Shown: positions 22,960 to 37,902 of the stretch, one piece after another | Layout of the letters: each line of letters starts with the position of its first letter | How positions within the stretch are numbered: position 1 is the first letter of the stretch | Source of the DNA: a virus | Strand: one strand, 5' to 3' | IMG/VR virus record: IMGVR_UViG_3300036760_000150 | Coordinates: 32,001-96,000 of that record | DNA: 64,000 nt | Made by a program: the position numbers and the translations under genes | The notes under the pieces: model-generated | What the model was told of the DNA's origin: nothing | The model's database searches: none | Seen by the model: only the letters and a program-made list of their open reading frames with translations

Positions 22960-22988
22960 ATGGTAACATATTAAAAACAACTAATCAA
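22960..22988 (-). promoter_or_regulatory. sigma70-type promoter of HNH gene (leaderless), overlapped by palindrome ATATGTTA-tgg-TAACATAT
   Basis: TTGATT-17 nt-TACCAT; ATG at 22954. Confidence 0.5.
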
Positions 22989-23193
22989 CACCAAGGGCGT
23001 CTCTTAGAGTGGCCACCGCAGACTTATAACATTCTTTCACCTCATCCACAGACATCAACAGGAGATGTGCTATGACGGAGTCAGGAACACCACGGTCGTT
23101 GGACTTCATGAACAAGTCCAAGCTGTTCTTGTACCTCTTAGAGTTTATGTAGTCGTGATCAGAGTGGATCTTGTCTTCTGAGTCAACCTTCAT
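22981..23193 (-). CDS. stand-alone sigma70 region 4.2-like HTH protein
   Basis: GVPDSVIAHLLLMSVDEVKECYKSAVATLRD fits the r4.2 pattern (IA..L.+S...V......A+..LR). Confidence 0.55.
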   Translation of the reverse strand: MKVDSEDKIHSDHDYINSKRYKNSLDLFMKSNDRGVPDSVIAHLLLMSVDEVKECYKSAVATLRDALGVD

Positions 23194-23894: not shown

Positions 23895-25022
23895 TTACTT
23901 CTTCTTGCCGAATCTCTTACCGTTGAAAGTGAAGGTACCATCTATGATGATCGGCACATATCGTGTGTAGTTTCCGTCTATAGTGAACTCAAAGATTCCT
24001 AACGCATGAGACCAGTTGTTAGGTTTCCCTTTCAAGAACTTGGCCTGCAGCGTCCTGAGACATCCTAGACTCATCGACTCATGGGTGCCTTTAACAGAAA
24101 CACCAGAATATCCTTGAATATCGTGGAGATGGCCATAATAAATGTTGACTCCGAAGATGTCTAGATGTTTCTTCGCATGATGGGTGCCAGTGTAGTAACC
24201 ATGGATGAAGTGTGCGTTACCAAGTCGTAATATCTCATTCAAAGGGATAACTCTGTAGCCAAGATCTTTCAGTCCTAGTAGATCTTGTATCTTCAGGTTA
24301 CATCCAATATCCTCTAACTTGTACATGAACTCGGGCACCTTGGCCGTCAAGAGTTGGTTAAGCCAATCTTCATGGTTTCCAATTATGAAACGTTTGTATA
24401 CACATTGAGGACCGGCTGCCTTGTCGATACGTGCAAGTAGCTTCTTTGCTGATTTGACATCGTCTACGAACACGCGTGGTTTTCCGTCTACAGACGGCCA
24501 AGGAGACACGGGTTCCATCTCCATGAAATCTCCTAGGTTGATCAAACCATGTGGTTTGTACCAGTGTAAGAACTCACACACAGATTGTATCGCATCTTCA
24601 TCATGGTCAGGTGTATGTGTGTCTGGCTCAACCACGATCCTTAAGACCTCGTCATCTTTAAGTTTTGCCAACTTGAAGATCTCACGCATAGGAGTCTCGT
24701 GCACCGTGAAGTTGTCCAACTTAGGAGTAAGAAGTTTTAGCTTACCGCTACTTTTCGAGTGTGCTCCGATGCTTCGTGGAAGAACTGTGGTCTGGGAGGT
24801 GGTTGGTGCGGGGAACAGGGCATCTCTCTGTCCTGTGAACCCACCTAACTTTCTTATCTGCCATTCAGGTACTTTGTCACCGACCACACTCCAAAACTGA
24901 GCAGGTGTGACATCATACGGTGCAACATCGTACTGTTCGGCGGCATCTGTGATGCCTTTCTTTATAACAGTTATGATGTTGTTTGACTTACGCTTGTGGG
25001 CTTTCTTGGTTTGTTGAGTCAT
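23895..25022 (-). CDS. calcineurin-like metallophosphoesterase
   Basis: PDTH, LGDF, GNHE, HG, GHLH motifs. Confidence 0.88.
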   Translation of the reverse strand: MTQQTKKAHKRKSNNIITVIKKGITDAAEQYDVAPYDVTPAQFWSVVGDKVPEWQIRKLGGFTGQRDALFPAPTTSQTTVLPRSIGAHSKSSGKLKLLTPKLDNFTVHETPMREIFKLAKLKDDEVLRIVVEPDTHTPDHDEDAIQSVCEFLHWYKPHGLINLGDFMEMEPVSPWPSVDGKPRVFVDDVKSAKKLLARIDKAAGPQCVYKRFIIGNHEDWLNQLLTAKVPEFMYKLEDIGCNLKIQDLLGLKDLGYRVIPLNEILRLGNAHFIHGYYTGTHHAKKHLDIFGVNIYYGHLHDIQGYSGVSVKGTHESMSLGCLRTLQAKFLKGKPNNWSHALGIFEFTIDGNYTRYVPIIIDGTFTFNGKRFGKKK

Positions 25023-28167: not shown

Positions 28168-28563
28168 TCAGCTCGATCTTATAGACCATATAACTTCAAT
28201 ATCTCTTACATTTCTGTCTATGTCAACGGTAGACAGCATGCATCTAGATAGTCTTATGTGTGACTTGATGAAGGGTGACGTGAAACGACGCATGTACATC
28301 TCTAACATATCTAAGGTCATCCTTGAGTAGTGAATTATGTCGTTTTTGAAGTTGAGGGCGTACTCACTGAGGTCATCCTTGTTAAGGAACGCACGCAACA
28401 TGTATAGTCCTTCGTGGATTGGATCTTCCACCACCAACACCCTGTTGGTCTTATCCTTGAGTTCTTTGATAGGGATATATAACGTTGCATGGTCGAGATG
28501 CTCCCAAAGGGCCATTGTGGTGTCAAGTCTGTTAGACCTCTGCATTGATGGTTGCCACCCCAT
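28168..28563 (-). CDS. hypothetical protein
   Basis: ORF in gene string. Confidence 0.6.
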   Translation of the reverse strand: MGWQPSMQRSNRLDTTMALWEHLDHATLYIPIKELKDKTNRVLVVEDPIHEGLYMLRAFLNKDDLSEYALNFKNDIIHYSRMTLDMLEMYMRRFTSPFIKSHIRLSRCMLSTVDIDRNVRDIEVIWSIRSS

Positions 28564-30382
28564 TCTGTTTAATGACGATCAGACGACTGTCGACAGCTGC
28601 GTTGAACTCAGAGGCATGGTCCACCAACAAGTACGTCTTGTCTGCACTTTTGAACTTAAAGAACTCGAGCAAGGCCTCTTTGCTGTTGTAGTCTATGGCG
28701 TCAAAAGGTTCATCCAAGAACTTATACCCTACGTACACACCAAGTCGTCTGCTAAGTATAGTATCTAACGCCTCATCGACTGCGATGCTGAGACTTCGTT
28801 GTTCGCCACCAGAAAGAGATCCTAAACTTACTTGATCTTGACCGTCCTTTATCTCACATGTGATCTCTTTGCTTATGTTACCAGTGCTCTTCACCATCTT
28901 ATCTGGTTTAAATGTAACATATAGATGACGTATGTTGGGGATCATCTGTATGTTTTTGTTAACTTCGTAGTTCATCTCGTCGAGTACTCGATCGAAGATG
29001 TGGCCTATGAAGCCACCACGTGAGAGTACCTTCTCGGCGTAAGATAAGATCTCAACGTCGTCCACAACAAACGACAACCTGCCTTCTAACGCATCTAGCT
29101 CGCTAAGGTATTTGTTGACCTGGCTCTTGGCAGCCTCCAAGTTTTTTGCCACACTGTCGATGTATTGTTGAGCAGACGACAACGCAGATGACATGGCATT
29201 GCTGTTCATGAGAAGTTGAGATCTTCTCTCGTTAAGTACCCTCACCTCTTTGTCGACACTCTGGCTTTGTATCTCTACAAGTATGTGTGACTTTTGGTTG
29301 AGAAGGACGGACGTATCAGGTAGAACTTGTAGATCTTGCAGTTTCACATACAGTTGGTTAGCCTCAACCGTCAAGGAGGAGATCTGTCCATCGACATCTT
29401 GTGCCAGTTTGGCTGTATCTTGGTTATGTATCTCCTGCTTACAGGCATAGCAGATGTTCTTTGCCACATATGACTGCCTGTTCTTAAGATCTTGCATCTG
29501 AGACGCAATCAGCTTTATCTTCGACTCTGTTTTGATCTTATCCGACCTCTTTGAGTCAACTGATGATATCTCAAGATCTATCTGTTTAACTCGATTCAAC
29601 AGGTCGTATGGTGCAGGGCGACTTTTGACCGCAGCGATCTCCGAGTCTACTTGTTGAACATCTTCTTTTATCTTCTGGATAACAATCTTGTACTCATCAA
29701 TTGATGCTTTCTTGGTTGAAAACTCTTGGCTGGAGATATCTTTGAGCATACTATCTACACGCACCTGTGATTGCTCTGCGTTTTCTTTTAAGAACAGGAT
29801 GCGGGATGATAAAGTTTTCATCTCATCGGTAGCTTTTGATGATTTTGCTTTGATAGACTCCTGAGCTTTCTCTAGGGATGATAAATTCAAGAATACGCCC
29901 AAAAACTCCTTTTTCTCAGAGTCTTTCATGCGCAGGAATCCGCCGTACGACCCCTGTTCTCTGTATGTCAGGTACATGAAATGTTCAGGAGACAGCCCCA
30001 TCAAGTTGACGATCTTTTCTTGAACGTCATCTGCCTTGCCGTCAATCATTGCACCGTCAAACTGTGCTGTTAACTTACCTCCTATAGTGCGATCAACGAC
30101 AAGCTCCTTTCCATTAACATCTAGCACCGCAGACAGTGAGGTGGGCTTATCAGAGTTATGTCGGTTCTTTGAGTCTTTTGTTGTCAATCCTACCGATGAA
30201 GCTCCAAACAGGGCTACCTTATCGGAAAGTATGAGGGAGGTTTTTCCTGAACCATTGGACCCTCCATTATCTTTGTTCTGACCAACAACAGTACATACAG
30301 CGTTGGTAGGTACAAGGAAAGATTGGTTGACACCTATGTCTCTGAAGTTTGAGATGTTAACCTGTTTTAATGATATTCTCAT
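28532..30382 (-). CDS. sbcC: SbcC/Rad50/gp46-like ATPase
   Basis: NGSGKT, CYAC Zn hook in coiled coil, LSGGE, LDEPF, VDH. Confidence 0.92.
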   Translation of the reverse strand: MRISLKQVNISNFRDIGVNQSFLVPTNAVCTVVGQNKDNGGSNGSGKTSLILSDKVALFGASSVGLTTKDSKNRHNSDKPTSLSAVLDVNGKELVVDRTIGGKLTAQFDGAMIDGKADDVQEKIVNLMGLSPEHFMYLTYREQGSYGGFLRMKDSEKKEFLGVFLNLSSLEKAQESIKAKSSKATDEMKTLSSRILFLKENAEQSQVRVDSMLKDISSQEFSTKKASIDEYKIVIQKIKEDVQQVDSEIAAVKSRPAPYDLLNRVKQIDLEISSVDSKRSDKIKTESKIKLIASQMQDLKNRQSYVAKNICYACKQEIHNQDTAKLAQDVDGQISSLTVEANQLYVKLQDLQVLPDTSVLLNQKSHILVEIQSQSVDKEVRVLNERRSQLLMNSNAMSSALSSAQQYIDSVAKNLEAAKSQVNKYLSELDALEGRLSFVVDDVEILSYAEKVLSRGGFIGHIFDRVLDEMNYEVNKNIQMIPNIRHLYVTFKPDKMVKSTGNISKEITCEIKDGQDQVSLGSLSGGEQRSLSIAVDEALDTILSRRLGVYVGYKFLDEPFDAIDYNSKEALLEFFKFKSADKTYLLVDHASEFNAAVDSRLIVIKQNGVATINAEV

Positions 30383-30384
30383 TC

Positions 30385-30660
30385 CTACTTCTTCTCCGTT
30401 GGGTCGTCTCGTTTTTCTATCAGCTCAAGGAGTTTATCACCACGCTCTTTTAGTTTGTTGGTGATGTCCTTGCGTAACTCAACCTTGCGAGCCATATTTC
30501 CGTTGTCAACAACCTCTATGCTGTTTGTAGAGACATCTGGCAGCTGTCTCTCCATGACGCCGCCGCAGTAACAAACCAGGTGTCCTACCTGGTCTTTGGC
30601 CTGTTTGTAGATCTTCTTCATCACATTGTTGCAGAGGTTGCATTTGTATACAGTCATCAT
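30385..30660 (-). CDS. FmdB-like Zn-ribbon protein
   Basis: YKCNLC...CYCGG.M. Confidence 0.65.
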   Translation of the reverse strand: MMTVYKCNLCNNVMKKIYKQAKDQVGHLVCYCGGVMERQLPDVSTNSIEVVDNGNMARKVELRKDITNKLKERGDKLLELIEKRDDPTEKK

Positions 30661-30697: not shown

Positions 30698-32545
30698 TTA
30701 GAATCTTGGTTCCCACTTATCCCACTCCTGCTCTCTGTCAGCTTGCGATAGGGTGCGCTGTGTGGAGTGGTAGTCTGCTGCTTCCTCTGAGTCTAGTGTA
30801 GAATCTCTTTGAAACACCACTATACCAGACAGCCCCATCAACATCTTCGCAACAGAGAGGCTGTTCTTTATAGCGTACAGTACCGCCGAGGCCGAGTCAA
30901 TGACACCGATCTCGATAGCGTCTCCGAACTTATGATTTAAAGCATCGTACGTGTAGAAGAGGGCGGTCGATGTCTGCTCTTTCTTTAGCAACCTATCAAG
31001 CCAACTGCGACGGTTGAACATCATATTCTGCCAGATCTCTAATACCTCACCGATATTCTGTCCACCATTCGTCAAGATGCGCCTGAATGGCTCCACAAGA
31101 GACTTACCCATGATGTACTTGACTGCGTCTGATAGGGCTGGGTTGTTGTGTATCTGACTAGCTAAAGTGTTGAGCGTCTTGGCGCACCCAGGCAGGACAC
31201 CGTCTTTTATAGCACCCTTTATAGCACATACGGCATCTTCTACCCTATGACGCTTCTCCTTGAGTTCAGCCTCAGAGCTGCCATACACCTTGAGCCTGGC
31301 GATGCCACCAGTTAGTATAGACATACGCTCTTTCATCATCTCGGCGTCGTACACACTCTCTGCCTGTTTGGCTTGCTGCTCAAGCTCCTCAACCCGTGGT
31401 ATCAACAGGCCTTCATCTGGGGTACCGATGATCAGACTTTTGTAACGACTATATTCAAACGTCTTCATGCTGTCTATGCCGAGGTCTTTTATCTCAGCTC
31501 CAGGAAGAGGCTTACTGAGAGGGTCGAACACAGATGCTCCAGTGAACGATGATACGTCTAAGAGGAAGTGGTACGGGCTGTTTGCCTGATGAGTCATAGG
31601 GGTGATCACAGGTATCACGTTGATGGTGTTTGGAGCTTTGAAGTTTGACGCCAATGTGGCAACGACGCTCTCAGAGAAGGCGTGAGCGATCAAAACTATG
31701 TTAGGCGACATAGCGTCTTTATCGTGTTGTTGAGCGTCAGATGCATTACCGATCTTATCGAACAAAGGCAACAGTGAGTTTATATCTGTGATCTTCCCGT
31801 TGTACAGAATAAACTTTGGCTTGTCTAGCATCGTCCTGTAATTCGACCTGTCGTTGATGAACTCCTCAAGGAAACGTCCGCAACTGTCTTCAAACCCTCT
31901 TGCGATAGGGAAACCGTCCACTTTCTCAACTCCGAAGCCTCCCATACCAGATGACTCTGCGATCGTAACCTGACCATTTGTGCCTACTAGACCAAAACAC
32001 TCCATTACCGCATCGGTCATCTCGACGTCGTTGTTCGTGGAGATCAACGCCACCTTACGCATGAGGTCATCTTTGTTCTCGTTGGTTATCCTGACAGCGT
32101 TACTTCGTATGAAGGGGACTATGAAGTTCTCAAACGACTTCTCAAGCTCGCGCATGATCTTCTGAGAAGACAGACGTGGATTCTTCTCCAAGTACTCAAA
32201 ACCGTTTCGTATTAAGGAGTCCGCCAGGATCGTAGCTGTAGTGGTCCCATCCCCTGCCTCTACGTTAGTTTTCGAGCTACTGTCCCTGGCGGCCTCCAGC
32301 ACTACCTGCGCAGTTGGATCTGCGAAGGCCATTGAATTGAACACCGTTATGCCATCTTTCGATAGGTAAGGTCCTAGGTTCTCCTGACGTTCGATGAGAA
32401 CTACCTTGCCGTTGGGGCCTAGTGTACTTCCTACCATTGCACTGGCTTTAGCAAGCGTCTTTAAGACTATATCTTTCAACTTTTGATGGTTGTAGGTAAT
32501 CGTCTTCGCTGCAGTTTTAGACTTAGCTACCTCTCGGTAGTACAT
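30698..32545 (-). CDS. groEL: chaperonin GroEL
   Basis: TLGPNG, KDGITV, AGDGTTTA, RVEDA, GVID; start set at MYYREV after GGGAGG. Confidence 0.93.
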   Translation of the reverse strand: MYYREVAKSKTAAKTITYNHQKLKDIVLKTLAKASAMVGSTLGPNGKVVLIERQENLGPYLSKDGITVFNSMAFADPTAQVVLEAARDSSSKTNVEAGDGTTTATILADSLIRNGFEYLEKNPRLSSQKIMRELEKSFENFIVPFIRSNAVRITNENKDDLMRKVALISTNNDVEMTDAVMECFGLVGTNGQVTIAESSGMGGFGVEKVDGFPIARGFEDSCGRFLEEFINDRSNYRTMLDKPKFILYNGKITDINSLLPLFDKIGNASDAQQHDKDAMSPNIVLIAHAFSESVVATLASNFKAPNTINVIPVITPMTHQANSPYHFLLDVSSFTGASVFDPLSKPLPGAEIKDLGIDSMKTFEYSRYKSLIIGTPDEGLLIPRVEELEQQAKQAESVYDAEMMKERMSILTGGIARLKVYGSSEAELKEKRHRVEDAVCAIKGAIKDGVLPGCAKTLNTLASQIHNNPALSDAVKYIMGKSLVEPFRRILTNGGQNIGEVLEIWQNMMFNRRSWLDRLLKKEQTSTALFYTYDALNHKFGDAIEIGVIDSASAVLYAIKNSLSVAKMLMGLSGIVVFQRDSTLDSEEAADYHSTQRTLSQADREQEWDKWEPRF

Positions 32546-34156: not shown

Positions 34157-35596
34157 GTGAGATTTGTCCAAAGAGATCCTTTAAAACTTTACGTACACGA
34201 CTGCTCTGAGCAGGAGCGTGTAGACCTTGTTAAGTTCTTGTCTTACAAAGACAAGTCTGTCGAGTACCAGATAAAGAAGTTAAGGTCGAACGCACACTAC
34301 TACAACAGGATGGGTGAGTCTTGGTTCACTGAGCGTATCGAGACGTTGAAGTCTCAGGTCAACAAGTTCGTCATGTACCAAGACGAAGGTGGCATGTACA
34401 CCTTGGCTGGCTTGAAGACCAAGTTGGCAGGTCGTTTCATGAGTGCGACATTCGATGTTGATGTAAAAGTGCCAGAAGGATCATCTCTCCCCTGGTCTAA
34501 GGAGCCTGAGTTTCAACTGCGAGATTACCAGTTGGACGCTAAAGAGAAGTTGCTAAATGTTGTTCATGGTAACGTAGAATTGCCACAAGGATCAGGTAAA
34601 AGCAACATAATTTTGCACGTTGTCAGGGAGCTAGGCCTTAAGACGTTAGTCGTAGCCCCATCTACAAATATCGCAAAGCAGCTATATGAATTGTTTGTAT
34701 CTCACCTATCGAAGAAGTATGTTGGATTCTACGGTGGTGGTAAGAAAGAGACGAAGAAGTTGATAACGGTCTCCATAGCTCAGTCTGTCACTAAGATAAA
34801 TCCTGGATCTGAAGAATGGAAGAACTTGTCATCTTGTGATGTATTCGTGGCAGACGAGAATCATCTGTTTGCTGCCGATACTTTTGCCAAGATTGCAACC
34901 GGTATTGCAGCCGGTTCTGTATGGCGGATGTTTTTCTCAGCTACTCCTGAGAGGAACGATGGTAAAGATATACTTCTACAGGGCGTCATAGGTGATGCTG
35001 TGTGCAAGAAGACTCCAATAGAGTTGATGGAGAGTGGCCACCTTGCGAAGATCAGCACATTAGTCGTAGATGTTGAGTCTGAAGATACATACATGACAGA
35101 CAACGCATTGAAGATGAACCAGACGCATCTATACTCAAACAGGAAGATAGTGAAGTTCATATCTGACGTGTGCTACTCTTCGTTCATGGATGGCGTCCCA
35201 ACGTTAATCTTGGTCGACGAGCACTCACAAGAGGCTCTTCTTAAAGCTCACATGCGTAATACATACGAGTATGCCTCAGGTCAGTCTGACACATCTAAGA
35301 TCGTAAAAGATTTCAACGATGGTAAGATCCTTTGTGTAGTTGGTACCTCTGCGGTTAGCATGGGTACTGACTTCAAACCAGTCAGGTTGACGATCGCATG
35401 GCAAGGCAACAAGTCTGGTACCAAGGTTAAACAAGGGCCTATTGGCCGTAGCACTAGAATTGACGAGAAGAGTGGCAAGAAAGACTGTAAGATAATTGAT
35501 TTCAGGGTCACCAACGCTCCAATGCTTAAACGTCATGCTGATGTTAGGATCAAACACTACATGGAGGTTGGGCCGGTAAGGTACACAAAAATTTAA
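34157..35596 (+). CDS. uvsW: UvsW-like SF2 helicase
   Basis: LRDYQ, PQGSGKS, DENH, SATP, GRSTR. Confidence 0.88.
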   Translation: MRFVQRDPLKLYVHDCSEQERVDLVKFLSYKDKSVEYQIKKLRSNAHYYNRMGESWFTERIETLKSQVNKFVMYQDEGGMYTLAGLKTKLAGRFMSATFDVDVKVPEGSSLPWSKEPEFQLRDYQLDAKEKLLNVVHGNVELPQGSGKSNIILHVVRELGLKTLVVAPSTNIAKQLYELFVSHLSKKYVGFYGGGKKETKKLITVSIAQSVTKINPGSEEWKNLSSCDVFVADENHLFAADTFAKIATGIAAGSVWRMFFSATPERNDGKDILLQGVIGDAVCKKTPIELMESGHLAKISTLVVDVESEDTYMTDNALKMNQTHLYSNRKIVKFISDVCYSSFMDGVPTLILVDEHSQEALLKAHMRNTYEYASGQSDTSKIVKDFNDGKILCVVGTSAVSMGTDFKPVRLTIAWQGNKSGTKVKQGPIGRSTRIDEKSGKKDCKIIDFRVTNAPMLKRHADVRIKHYMEVGPVRYTKI

Positions 35597-35597
35597 C

Positions 35598-36884
35598 ATG
35601 GACGAGAACAGTTTACTGTACACATACATAAAGGAGTTGAACGAAGAAGCCAAGTTGCTTGATCATGGCGTCATAGACTCGTTGTTTGCGAAGTTGATAT
35701 CTCTTGAGAAGTCATTTGAGGTTAAACTCCGCAAGACTGCGAAAGGTAGAAAGATCTATGCTGTGTTCATCAACATGATCTACAAGTCTAACCGAGGTAT
35801 GATCTCCCTAAGGCCTTACTTCCGTCAACGTGAGCACATGTTCTTGGGTACGATTAACAAAGCGGTGGAGAACAACAAGCCAGAGGAGCTGTATGGTTCC
35901 CCTGTCAACTACAGGTTCATGGCATTTGCGTTAGAATGTCTTAACAGCGCCAACGATGAGAAGAGAAATAGCACATCAGATGCTGGTGAAAATCATCAAA
36001 AAGAACTCGCAGACATACTTGAGAAAGTTAAGATAGTCAGAAATGAGATCGTCAACAGCAACCTGTTCCTCTCTCTAGGACGAGCTAAGATACACAGCCG
36101 ATCGTCTTACAGCTCCTCCATAGATACCTCTGACCTTGTTCAGATCGCCAACGAAGCTCTGATCACTGCTGTCGACAAGTACGTACCCGACTCAAGGTCT
36201 GTGTTCGCACATATGGCTATAGGTCGTATCATAGCTAACTTGATCGCAGAAGGGTCATCACCGTCCTCAGCAACTATAAACTCAAGTGGTAAGAAGAAGT
36301 TGTATAGGATACGGAAAGCACTTGAGAAAGCTCCATCTGCTAACAGAGCAGAGATCGCCAAGATCTTAGAGATCGCAGAGCAGGAAGTCAATGAGCTGTT
36401 AGAGTCAACACATTACTCTAGCCTTGACCAACCGTTGTATGAGGGTGATACTAGGACGTTGGGTGATACTGTAGAGGATGTGAAGACAGACCCGCATAAC
36501 GAAGTGGAACGTCGAGACATGTTCATGAAGCTGTTCAGGGCTTATGATTCATTGTCCGTGATCGAGATGAAAGTTTTAAGATTAAAAGGAGTTAACCCTA
36601 TGCGTACACTCAACAAGCATGTGGCTGTGACTGTTCCTACCTTGAAAAAAATAGAGGAAAGAACGGTGAAAGGGTTCCAGATGTCTGAGAATCTTACCAC
36701 TGCTCTGGTAGAGTCGCAGGTTATGTTTGACTCAGAGAAGTTCAAGGTTGGTGAAGTTGTCTACTTCAGGGCTGATATTAAGAATCACAGTTACATGAGT
36801 CAGAAGTACAACTTCGGTGGTAAGGAGTTCTTGCTCGTGCCAGAGGAAATGGTCGTGGCAGTTAAGAGTGCCGATGAAGCGTAA
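35598..36884 (+). CDS. sigma70-like factor (regions 2, 3, 4.1) fused to C-terminal GroES-like domain
   Basis: DLVQIANEALITAVDKY (r2), EIAKIL..SLDQPL...TLGD (r3), LSVIEMKVLRL (r4.1), then GroES-like 94 aa. Confidence 0.82.
   Translation: MDENSLLYTYIKELNEEAKLLDHGVIDSLFAKLISLEKSFEVKLRKTAKGRKIYAVFINMIYKSNRGMISLRPYFRQREHMFLGTINKAVENNKPEELYGSPVNYRFMAFALECLNSANDEKRNSTSDAGENHQKELADILEKVKIVRNEIVNSNLFLSLGRAKIHSRSSYSSSIDTSDLVQIANEALITAVDKYVPDSRSVFAHMAIGRIIANLIAEGSSPSSATINSSGKKKLYRIRKALEKAPSANRAEIAKILEIAEQEVNELLESTHYSSLDQPLYEGDTRTLGDTVEDVKTDPHNEVERRDMFMKLFRAYDSLSVIEMKVLRLKGVNPMRTLNKHVAVTVPTLKKIEERTVKGFQMSENLTTALVESQVMFDSEKFKVGEVVYFRADIKNHSYMSQKYNFGGKEFLLVPEEMVVAVKSADEA
36600..36884 (+). CDS. groES: nested in-frame GroES-like co-chaperonin (94 aa)
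   Basis: AGGAG at 36587-36591, ATG at 36600; MRTLNKHVAV..EERTVKGFQM..KVGEVVYF..FGGKEFLLVPEEMVVAV aligns by eye to GroES. Confidence 0.72.
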   Translation: MRTLNKHVAVTVPTLKKIEERTVKGFQMSENLTTALVESQVMFDSEKFKVGEVVYFRADIKNHSYMSQKYNFGGKEFLLVPEEMVVAVKSADEA

Positions 36885-37902
36885 GTACATTCTCGTAGGA
36901 GACTTGCATGCTCAAGTTGGTAACCTTGAGGATACCGAGGTGGTGTTTGATAAAGTAGCTATGCTTGTTCGTGAGCATGGTATCGAGTTTGTTGTTTACC
37001 TAGGAGACATGTACCACACACACTCTGTCTTAAGACAAGAAGTAGTTGAACTTCTCAGACGCAAGCTGCCTGAGACGCGAGGTACATGTCAAGGTAAGCC
37101 TGTGGTACTTGTTGGTAACCATGACTTGGTTGGCCCTACCAGCACGTCGATGAATGCTTGTGAGTTGACTCTGTCTGATGTGGCTGCTGTCGTATCTGAG
37201 CCAGTAGAGGCTGGACCTGTGTTGTACATGCCATTCACCCCTGATAACAGTAAGTTCGTAGAGGAATGTAAGAAGTACTACGGCACATCTCTTGTTGTAT
37301 GTCATCAGACATTTGATGGTTCGCAATACGAGAATGGTTTCTATGCTCCAGGTGGAGTAGATCAAACTTTGATACCACAGAAGGTTGTCATCTCGGGTCA
37401 TATACATAAATCGCAGAAAGTTGGTAAGGTTACATACGTGGGTACCCCACGAGCCCTCACTGCTGCAGAGTGTGATGAAGATAAAGGTCTTGTCATGATG
37501 ACCTACGATGATGTGACGTGTGGTGTTGAGCTTAAGATGTACTCGTTGAACGGATTGGTGAAGACTTACAAGAAAGTTGACGTACAAGAACCAGCTGAGT
37601 TTGATATGCCGCTTTTGAACGGTTGGGGAGCCAAAGACCACGTCATGCTGCATGTGCATGGATCTGAAGACTACTGTGAAACCTTCGTGAAAGATAAGTT
37701 ACCCGTACTAAAACAGCTTCGACCTAAGACGACTATAAAGGTGGCCTGTCATGTAGAGAAAGTTGTTGATGGTAAACCTATCATGGACGTATCCTCTGAG
37801 AGTGTTACGGATTCACTTCGTAAGTATGTAATGGAAGTTGCTGACATGAAGGCGACACTAAGAGAGAGGGTATGGGAGACGATATCAAGAGAACTGAAGT
37901 AG
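36874..37902 (+). CDS. sbcD: SbcD/Mre11/gp47-like nuclease
   Basis: GDLH, LGD, GNHD, HQ, SGHIH, YVGTP. Confidence 0.9.
   Translation: MKRKYILVGDLHAQVGNLEDTEVVFDKVAMLVREHGIEFVVYLGDMYHTHSVLRQEVVELLRRKLPETRGTCQGKPVVLVGNHDLVGPTSTSMNACELTLSDVAAVVSEPVEAGPVLYMPFTPDNSKFVEECKKYYGTSLVVCHQTFDGSQYENGFYAPGGVDQTLIPQKVVISGHIHKSQKVGKVTYVGTPRALTAAECDEDKGLVMMTYDDVTCGVELKMYSLNGLVKTYKKVDVQEPAEFDMPLLNGWGAKDHVMLHVHGSEDYCETFVKDKLPVLKQLRPKTTIKVACHVEKVVDGKPIMDVSSESVTDSLRKYVMEVADMKATLRERVWETISRELK

Follow-up and report, generated by a model that had tools for sequence, protein, structure and literature searches.

A sigma factor fused to a predicted GroES-like domain, with a conserved internal start, in a clade of phages that encode their own GroEL

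We report that a viral DNA stretch of 64,000 nucleotides (nt; bases 32001-96000 of the IMG/VR record IMGVR_UViG_3300036760_000150, hereafter the window; the source record is 146.7 kb long and estimated to be 90% complete) carries an open reading frame (ORF) in which a sigma-70-family factor lacking region 4.2 runs in frame into a predicted GroES-like domain of 94 amino acids (aa). The fusion ORF (35598..36884, + strand) is shared by a single clade of diverged phage proteins, and in the relatives outside this clade the two parts are neighbouring genes. Our data suggest, as what we consider the probable explanation, that two translationally coupled genes fused once and that the fusion has long been kept, such that the locus would give both a hybrid of sigma factor and chaperonin lid and a free lid serving the GroEL that the phage itself encodes. 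An original prediction, made from the nucleotide sequence alone, had proposed a sigma-GroES fusion at this locus and knew of no described example; nor did we find a description of this domain combination in the literature.

Results

A sigma-70-family factor without region 4.2

The ORF is open over 428 codons with no stop (428 aa plus the stop codon), full-length homologues are 410-434 aa long (P0002-P0009) and the same in-frame junction is present in loci L025, L026 and L027. A sigma-70-family factor makes up residues 1-334; it has regions 2, 3 and 4.1 and lacks the region 4.2 helix-turn-helix. The assignment to the sigma family is supported by PHROG 351 (sigma, E 1e-13), by the NCBIfam RpoD/SigA model (E 4e-14 over residues 123-330; the FliA model also matches) and by PDB sequences, where residues ~125-330 matched SigB (E 4.6e-6) and SigA/SigB (~5e-6). 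Region 3 (residues 243-300; 36324..36497, +) was recognised by Pfam PF04539 with an E-value of 6e-7 and 29.9 bits against a cut-off of 25.3 bits. For region 2 (approximately residues 136-205; 36003..36212, +) the Pfam r2 match is weak (E 0.024, residues 171-202), yet NCBIfam, PDB (SigB/SigA alignments), PHROG and Foldseek agree on its presence and the family alignment shows an invariant NE.L..VDKY motif. Region 4.1 (approximately residues 300-331; 36495..36590, +) was delimited by alignment to region 4.1 of SigA/SigB and by two predicted helices (residues 299-317 and 321-329), and it has at its end an invariant L-K-G, of which the K-G corresponds to the Gly conserved in region 4.1 of sigma factors. 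The N-terminal region of ~130 residues (35598..35987, +), helical in the AF2 model, is specific to the lineage and conserved across the phage sigma family, with Y10, L33, E37, F40, Y54, F57, F75, R76 and N104 being invariant (alignment A1).

The full-length AF2 model (pLDDT 73) gave sigma70/SigA chains as all of its top Foldseek matches. Its last two helices are region 4.1, the last one ends at residue 329, and strands begin at residue 341. The region 4 models PF04545 and PF08281 had no match anywhere in the genome at E<=1, and the protein is a truncated sigma factor, like other phage sigma factors without region 4. Moreover, 19 more distant homologues (325-342 aa) end 2-19 residues past the L-K-G(V) of region 4.1, and hence the missing helix-turn-helix that reads the -35 element is a trait of the whole family and not of this gene. 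An ORF of 70 aa at 22981-23193 (-) was considered as a free-standing region 4.2 and rejected, as it had no support from Pfam, PHROG or sigma structures and its PDB matches were repeat-protein artefacts.

The C-terminal 94 residues are predicted to be GroES-like

Residues 335-428, which start at a conserved internal ATG (36600..36884, +), are predicted to form a roof-less GroES/Cpn10-like barrel. The domain appears to be GroES-like in the way T4 gp31 is, that is a remote homologue or analogue of Cpn10/GroES and not a member of PF00166. In 12 related loci it is a separate gene (see below). An AF2 model of the domain, built with 15 relatives, has a pLDDT of 71.5 and shows a small beta-barrel in which residues 19-32 form a disordered loop. 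When this model was compared with the PDB using Foldseek, Cpn10, GroES, Hsp10 and T4 gp31 made up most of the top 30 matches (probability ~1.0, best E 3e-3, TM 0.45-0.50), and VIA-align, an independent all-against-all aligner, ranked GroES (Z 5.5), Hsp10 (5.1), Cpn20 (4.9) and gp31 (4.9) ahead of GroES-like domains of dehydrogenases. The BFVD list was dominated by viral GroES entries (best E 1.8e-4). A shape search of the ESM Atlas led to a viral cluster (TM 0.54) in which 51% of the members carry Cpn10, and a search by language-model features placed 22 of 30 matches in viral clusters with Cpn10 on 12-29% of members. The Cpn10/GroES/Hsp10/gp31 group leads in four independent libraries, and for the predicted model the fold named in the original prediction was recovered.

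Sequence comparison points in the same direction. A profile of 108 relatives aligned with a GroES alignment from end to end and in the structural register (hhalign; E 1.7e-4, probability 49%, 79 columns), and a hidden Markov model (HMM) search against PDB sequences returned marginal GroES rows (E ~0.5). A word-based homologue search using the 94 aa alone gave no matches, and an exhaustive profile search was needed to find the family.

Within the domain, residues 14-35 (36639..36704, +) constitute a candidate mobile loop, with pLDDT below 50 at domain residues 19-22 and 26-32. Amid variable loop columns there is a conserved island (Gly25-Phe26 in the window, 36672-36677): Gly25 is present in 89 of the 108 relatives, the next position is hydrophobic in 104 of the 108, and hydrophobic residues also predominate two positions beyond that, between variable flanks. 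Mobile loops of viral GroES proteins have a Gly followed by hydrophobic residues, often with a polar substitution, and roof-less forms are known (PMC5649160); the Gly-hydrophobic island of this family matches that signature. Conservation within the domain is highest in the first and last strands, the ones that build the ring interface of GroES. In the alignment with GroES there is a gap at the position of the roof hairpin. A lid function is compatible with a missing roof, which T4 gp31 and several viral GroES clusters also lack (PMC5649160).

Separate genes in relatives and a single origin of the fusion

The exhaustive profile search identified 725 cluster representatives of the GroES-like family at E<=1e-3, nearly all of which are stand-alone proteins of 90-120 aa. 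In 12 loci (L003, L004, L007-L014, L019 and L022), representing Myxococcus phage Mx1 and eleven metagenomic relatives, the unfused gene is situated directly after the sigma gene, in another frame and with its own Shine-Dalgarno (SD) sequence and start codon. This start overlaps the sigma stop or follows it by a few to ~200 nt, and the SD is located at the same place as the AAAGGAG of the window or just past the sigma stop. The A3 profile added five records in which tblastn had not detected the gene, and there too it lies just downstream of sigma. The family loci that we inspected share a block of genes comprising GroEL, helicase, sigma, the GroES-like gene, phosphoesterase and portal.

In Mx1 (OR576727.2), the family member is annotated as the "hypothetical protein" WNM70310.1 (L003:3075-3539; profile E 1.5e-27). 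Its gene lies directly after the sigma gene and encodes an additional C-terminal tail of ~60 aa, and the Mx1 GroEL gene is ~3.5 kb away across the record origin.

Fusion in frame is limited to nine distinct proteins of 410-434 aa with 47-65% identity, and the junction could be read in DNA from four samples (this record, L025, L026 and L027). In the sigma tree the nine proteins constitute one clade with a support of 100/100 and internal branches of up to ~0.6. In their sister group (L004) the two genes are separate and overlap, the downstream one having AAGGGAG as its SD and a GTG start within the end of sigma. A single, well-supported clade with long internal branches and a two-gene sister shows that the fusion arose once and persisted; it is old, probably came about through a small change in the gene overlap and has been maintained since. 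The claim that sigma continues into the 94-aa domain without a stop has accordingly held in related phages as well, where the three junctions read in the DNA are in frame.

A nested start with a conserved Shine-Dalgarno sequence

As originally described, an AGGAG (36587-36591, +) precedes the in-frame ATG 36600, with a spacing of exactly 8 nt. It is part of an AAAGGAG (36585..36591, +) within the K-G-V codons of sigma, which is identical in L025, L026 and L027, and the arrangement AAAGGAG-N8-ATG is identical and in frame in all four DNAs of the fused clade. The start Met is kept in nine of nine fused proteins, where it has no obvious structural role as an internal residue. The idea that the K-G of L-K-G is kept merely as an SD was rejected, as these residues are invariant also where the SD follows the sigma stop (L008, L012).

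In the window there are 26 AGGAG-N5-10-ATG sites followed by at least 60 open codons, and ~23 of these mark the 5' end of an ORF; 36600 is one of three that are deep inside an ORF. Since the signal marks true starts in ~23 of the 26 cases, the free 94-aa GroES-like protein is probably still made from ATG 36600, and the locus would then probably yield both the sigma-GroES hybrid and the free protein. A sigma factor without the extra domain is impossible in the fused clade, short of proteolysis. Elsewhere in the window, at 24524 (-), an AGGAG-N5-ATG is situated deep in an open frame (195 codons open upstream and 209 downstream), which may be a nested start or a mis-joined ORF.

The phage GroEL as candidate partner

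The phage was predicted to encode GroEL, and a GroEL homologue of 615 aa, the presumed partner, is indeed present at 30701..32545 (-), 3 kb upstream of the fusion and on the opposite strand. It matches PF00118 (E 2e-38), PHROG 5725 (2e-84) and NCBIfam GroEL models (up to 4.5e-75, yet under the equivalog cut-offs). The Cpn60 fold is recognisable and the ATPase residues are intact, D87 and D398 being invariant. The apical groove is mostly hydrophobic, with F204 and the hydrophobic positions 234, 237 and 259 kept. The protein also has apical and equatorial insertions, lacks a Gly-Gly-Met tail and carries an invariant Ala where the E. coli protein has V263. The Pfam Cpn10 search revealed no other Cpn10 encoded in the genome. 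GroEL is present in every related record searched except one fragment with an estimated completeness of 31%.

A predicted complex between GroEL (A4) and the 94-aa domain (A3) had a score of 0.02 against a mark of 0.32, obtained without controls, and speaks neither for nor against binding. The 91-aa gene after GroEL (30385-30660, -) was considered as a second lid and rejected, as it has no family match and is Cys-rich. This Cys-rich ORF is conserved, with homologues of 90-91 aa at the same place in L025 and L026.

Neighbouring genes

Upstream of the fusion and in the same operon is a helicase gene (34157..35596, +; ResIII/DEAD/Helicase_C), whose stop is immediately 5' of the sigma ATG and whose synteny is conserved. 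Downstream, an SbcD/Mre11-like phosphoesterase gene (36874..37902, +; Metallophos 4e-9, SbcD models 2e-5) starts at the ATG 36874, so that it shares 11 nt with the 3' end of the fusion ORF; in the related loci inspected, the SbcD-like gene is always next after the GroES-like gene. An SbcC/Rad50-like ATPase gene follows GroEL (28532-30382, -), and the two divergent operons consequently each hold one half of two presumed pairs, SbcC/SbcD-like and GroEL/GroES-like.

Discussion

Fusion of two coupled genes as the probable explanation

The fusion of sigma and the GroES-like domain is probably to be understood as follows. The ancestral state would have been two neighbouring and translationally coupled genes, encoding a sigma factor without region 4.2 and then a roof-less GroES-like protein of 90-120 aa, and in the ancestor of the clade a small change in the overlap would have abolished the stop codon of sigma and brought both genes into one reading frame. 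Each ribosome translating sigma would then run on to give the 428-aa sigma-GroES hybrid, and ribosomes starting at the retained AAAGGAG-N8-ATG would give the free 94-aa protein, the putative lid (co-chaperonin) of the phage's own GroEL. The use of the internal start, the lid function together with the phage GroEL and the continued working of the hybrid as a sigma factor are parts that we infer.

Several observations weigh against this explanation. Pfam Cpn10 (PF00166) misses the 94-aa domain and has no match across the genome, it reaches an E-value of ~0.04 in just two of the 108 relatives, and PHROGs gave no match for the domain. The fold scores are moderate (TM 0.45-0.58; Z about 5, 4.9-5.5) and small beta-barrels are common. 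The domain is linked to sigma and not to GroEL, and in one complete genome it stays by sigma with GroEL ~70 kb away; known viral GroES genes are usually beside GroEL (PMC5649160), and characterised phage GroELs, e.g. phiEL gp146, work without GroES (PMC7185714). Finally, as the fused clade has no domain-free sigma the hybrid must be functional, which fits a purely neutral fusion less well.

A possible role of the 94-aa domain in the transcription machinery

A different and rather unlikely explanation is that the 94-aa domain is a transcription component, i.e. a barrel of the GroES fold co-opted as partner of a sigma factor without region 4.2. It could for example be positioned at the beta-flap or the -35 element, or recruit an activator, in the way T4 gp33 completes gp55, and the fusion would have turned a non-covalent two-part sigma factor into a covalent one. 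The order sigma-then-domain is found across the whole lineage, down to ~25% sigma identity, and the genes are usually translationally coupled, while the linkage of the domain to GroEL varies, up to ~70 kb. The domain is exactly at the place of region 4.2 and is carried by all sigma factors of the fused clade, there is no region 4 domain elsewhere in the genome, and gene fusion is classic evidence of joint function.

On the other hand, the nearest structures are specifically co-chaperonins and not generic barrels, a Gly-hydrophobic island such as that conserved in its disordered loop is the GroEL-binding signature (PMC5649160), the terminal strands that make up the ring interface in GroES are best conserved, and GroEL is present in every complete relative with no other lid. 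The domain is as constantly beside the SbcD-like gene as it is beside sigma, and the adjacency to sigma may for this reason stem from a block of genes that has stayed frozen. In L035 the domain is parted from sigma by two small genes, which encode 67 and 64 aa and lie between the presumed sigma (a 352-aa ORF with no family match on record) and the GroES-like gene (L035:4610-5004). Co-occurrence cannot separate a lid function from a function in transcription, because in the related records searched, small fragments aside, sigma, the domain and GroEL always co-occur. The idea can be taken more broadly, with the GroES-like domain contributing to the work of sigma either by coupling the RNA polymerase holoenzyme to the phage chaperonin or by replacing region 4.2, and in this form it appears doubtful to the same degree.

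Tolerated hybrid or functional link

The hybrid may only be tolerated, as the C-terminus of sigma is free and GroES-type domains take N-terminal extensions. Other members of the family have N-terminal extensions of 40-110 residues, including MORN-type repeats in P0063 (L037:1100-1717) and Gly/Pro-rich low-complexity sequence in P0169, P0182, P0172, P0178, P0106 and P0118, which argues that the GroES-like domain repeatedly accepts additions at its N-terminus. Alternatively, the transcription and chaperonin machineries may be truly connected through the hybrid.

One such connection, put forward in the original prediction, would be that hybrid and free subunits co-assemble into lids, whereby sigma is held on GroEL and released by the folding load, coupling late transcription to the folding of capsid proteins. 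We regard this as improbable. Both products can plausibly be made from the single locus, GroEL and the lid are both encoded by the phage, the fusion has long been kept, and the chloroplast Cpn20, a tandem GroES fusion, establishes that GroES rings accept N-terminal fusions. Against this, only ~10 residues connect the helix of region 4.1 to the first strand, leaving little room for a 38-kDa sigma factor by the GroEL ring, and most relatives do without the fusion. The data fit a near-neutral, tolerated fusion just as well as the tethering of sigma in a GroES lid.

Region 4.2 resemblance and assembly artefacts

That residues 335-360 are a degenerate helix-turn-helix of region 4.2, such that only the last ~65 residues would be an added domain, is highly improbable. 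Some sigma HMMs extend to residues 355-359, in this one sequence, and residues 335-358 are superficially similar to region 4.2. The unfused sigma factors end before this segment, which in the relatives is the start of the separate downstream gene; Pro12 of the domain is present in 98 of the 108 relatives and the 20 residues that follow vary freely; AF2 predicts a strand and a disordered loop without helices at 335-360; and the Pfam region 4 models detected nothing. The family alignment and the folds contradict this interpretation, and the resemblance of residues 335-358 to region 4.2 is a coincidence. The architecture originally proposed, with regions 2, 3 and 4.1 followed by a GroES-like domain in place of region 4.2, therefore stands. 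An assembly or sequencing artefact, i.e. a stop lost or a frameshift introduced at the junction, has next to no probability and is contradicted for the clade, as independent assemblies, namely DNA from four separate samples, share this in-frame junction, and so do the nine diverged proteins of the single clade.

Comparison with known systems

Both T4 gp31 and RB49 CocO are, like the present domain, small phage proteins of the GroES fold with a mobile loop and no roof that are too diverged for the Cpn10 model, and with Z 4.9 over 82 aligned residues gp31 (1g31) ranks among the closest structures. However, gp31 is a stand-alone protein working with the GroEL of its host, whereas the phage studied here encodes a GroEL itself and its putative lid is fused or coupled to sigma. 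The GroES/GroEL pairs of virioplankton also combine GroEL with a diverged GroES, with roof-less forms and polar-substituted mobile loops, but there GroES adjoins GroEL in either order (Marine et al. 2017, PMC5649160), whereas here the GroES-like gene follows sigma and is 3-70 kb from GroEL, on the other strand. The BLAST and conserved-domain criteria of that study would likely miss the present GroES-like family.

With respect to the sigma part, T4 gp55 lacks regions 3 and 4 and is completed by a separate flap-binding protein, the helical gp33. The two systems have in common a phage sigma factor without a region 4.2 that reads the -35 element, together with a small partner; they differ in that regions 3 and 4.1 are present here and the partner is an all-beta GroES-like barrel. 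In chloroplast Cpn20 a GroES domain with a large N-terminal fusion still forms lids, and a Cpn20 chain is among the fold matches of the 94-aa domain. Cpn20 is a fusion of GroES to GroES, and here a GroES-like domain is joined to an unrelated transcription factor.

Pseudomonas phage EL gp146 is, like the GroEL of this lineage, a diverged group I chaperonin encoded by a phage; one point that sets the GroEL of this lineage apart is that it keeps the hydrophobic positions of the apical groove. Whether phage EL has a hidden GroES homologue was left open (PMC7185714). Searching the phiEL genome with the A3 profile gave no member of the GroES-like family, with Mx1 as control (1.5e-27).

Implications

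The data uncover a large unannotated GroES-like family in phages that have their own GroEL, which bears on the question of hidden lids for phage chaperonins, and a whole phage lineage whose sigma factor has no module for reading the -35 element and is always followed by a small GroES-like gene. If the domain is a working part of sigma, the whole lineage of Mx1-like phages would have adopted the fold of a chaperonin lid for transcription initiation and, were this true, the fused clade would serve as the "Rosetta stone" exposing a partnership between sigma and the GroES-like protein. If the fusion is merely tolerated, it would be a clean natural gene fusion that retains its internal start, and if the link is functional, it would provide a direct molecular connection from transcription initiation to protein folding in a virus.

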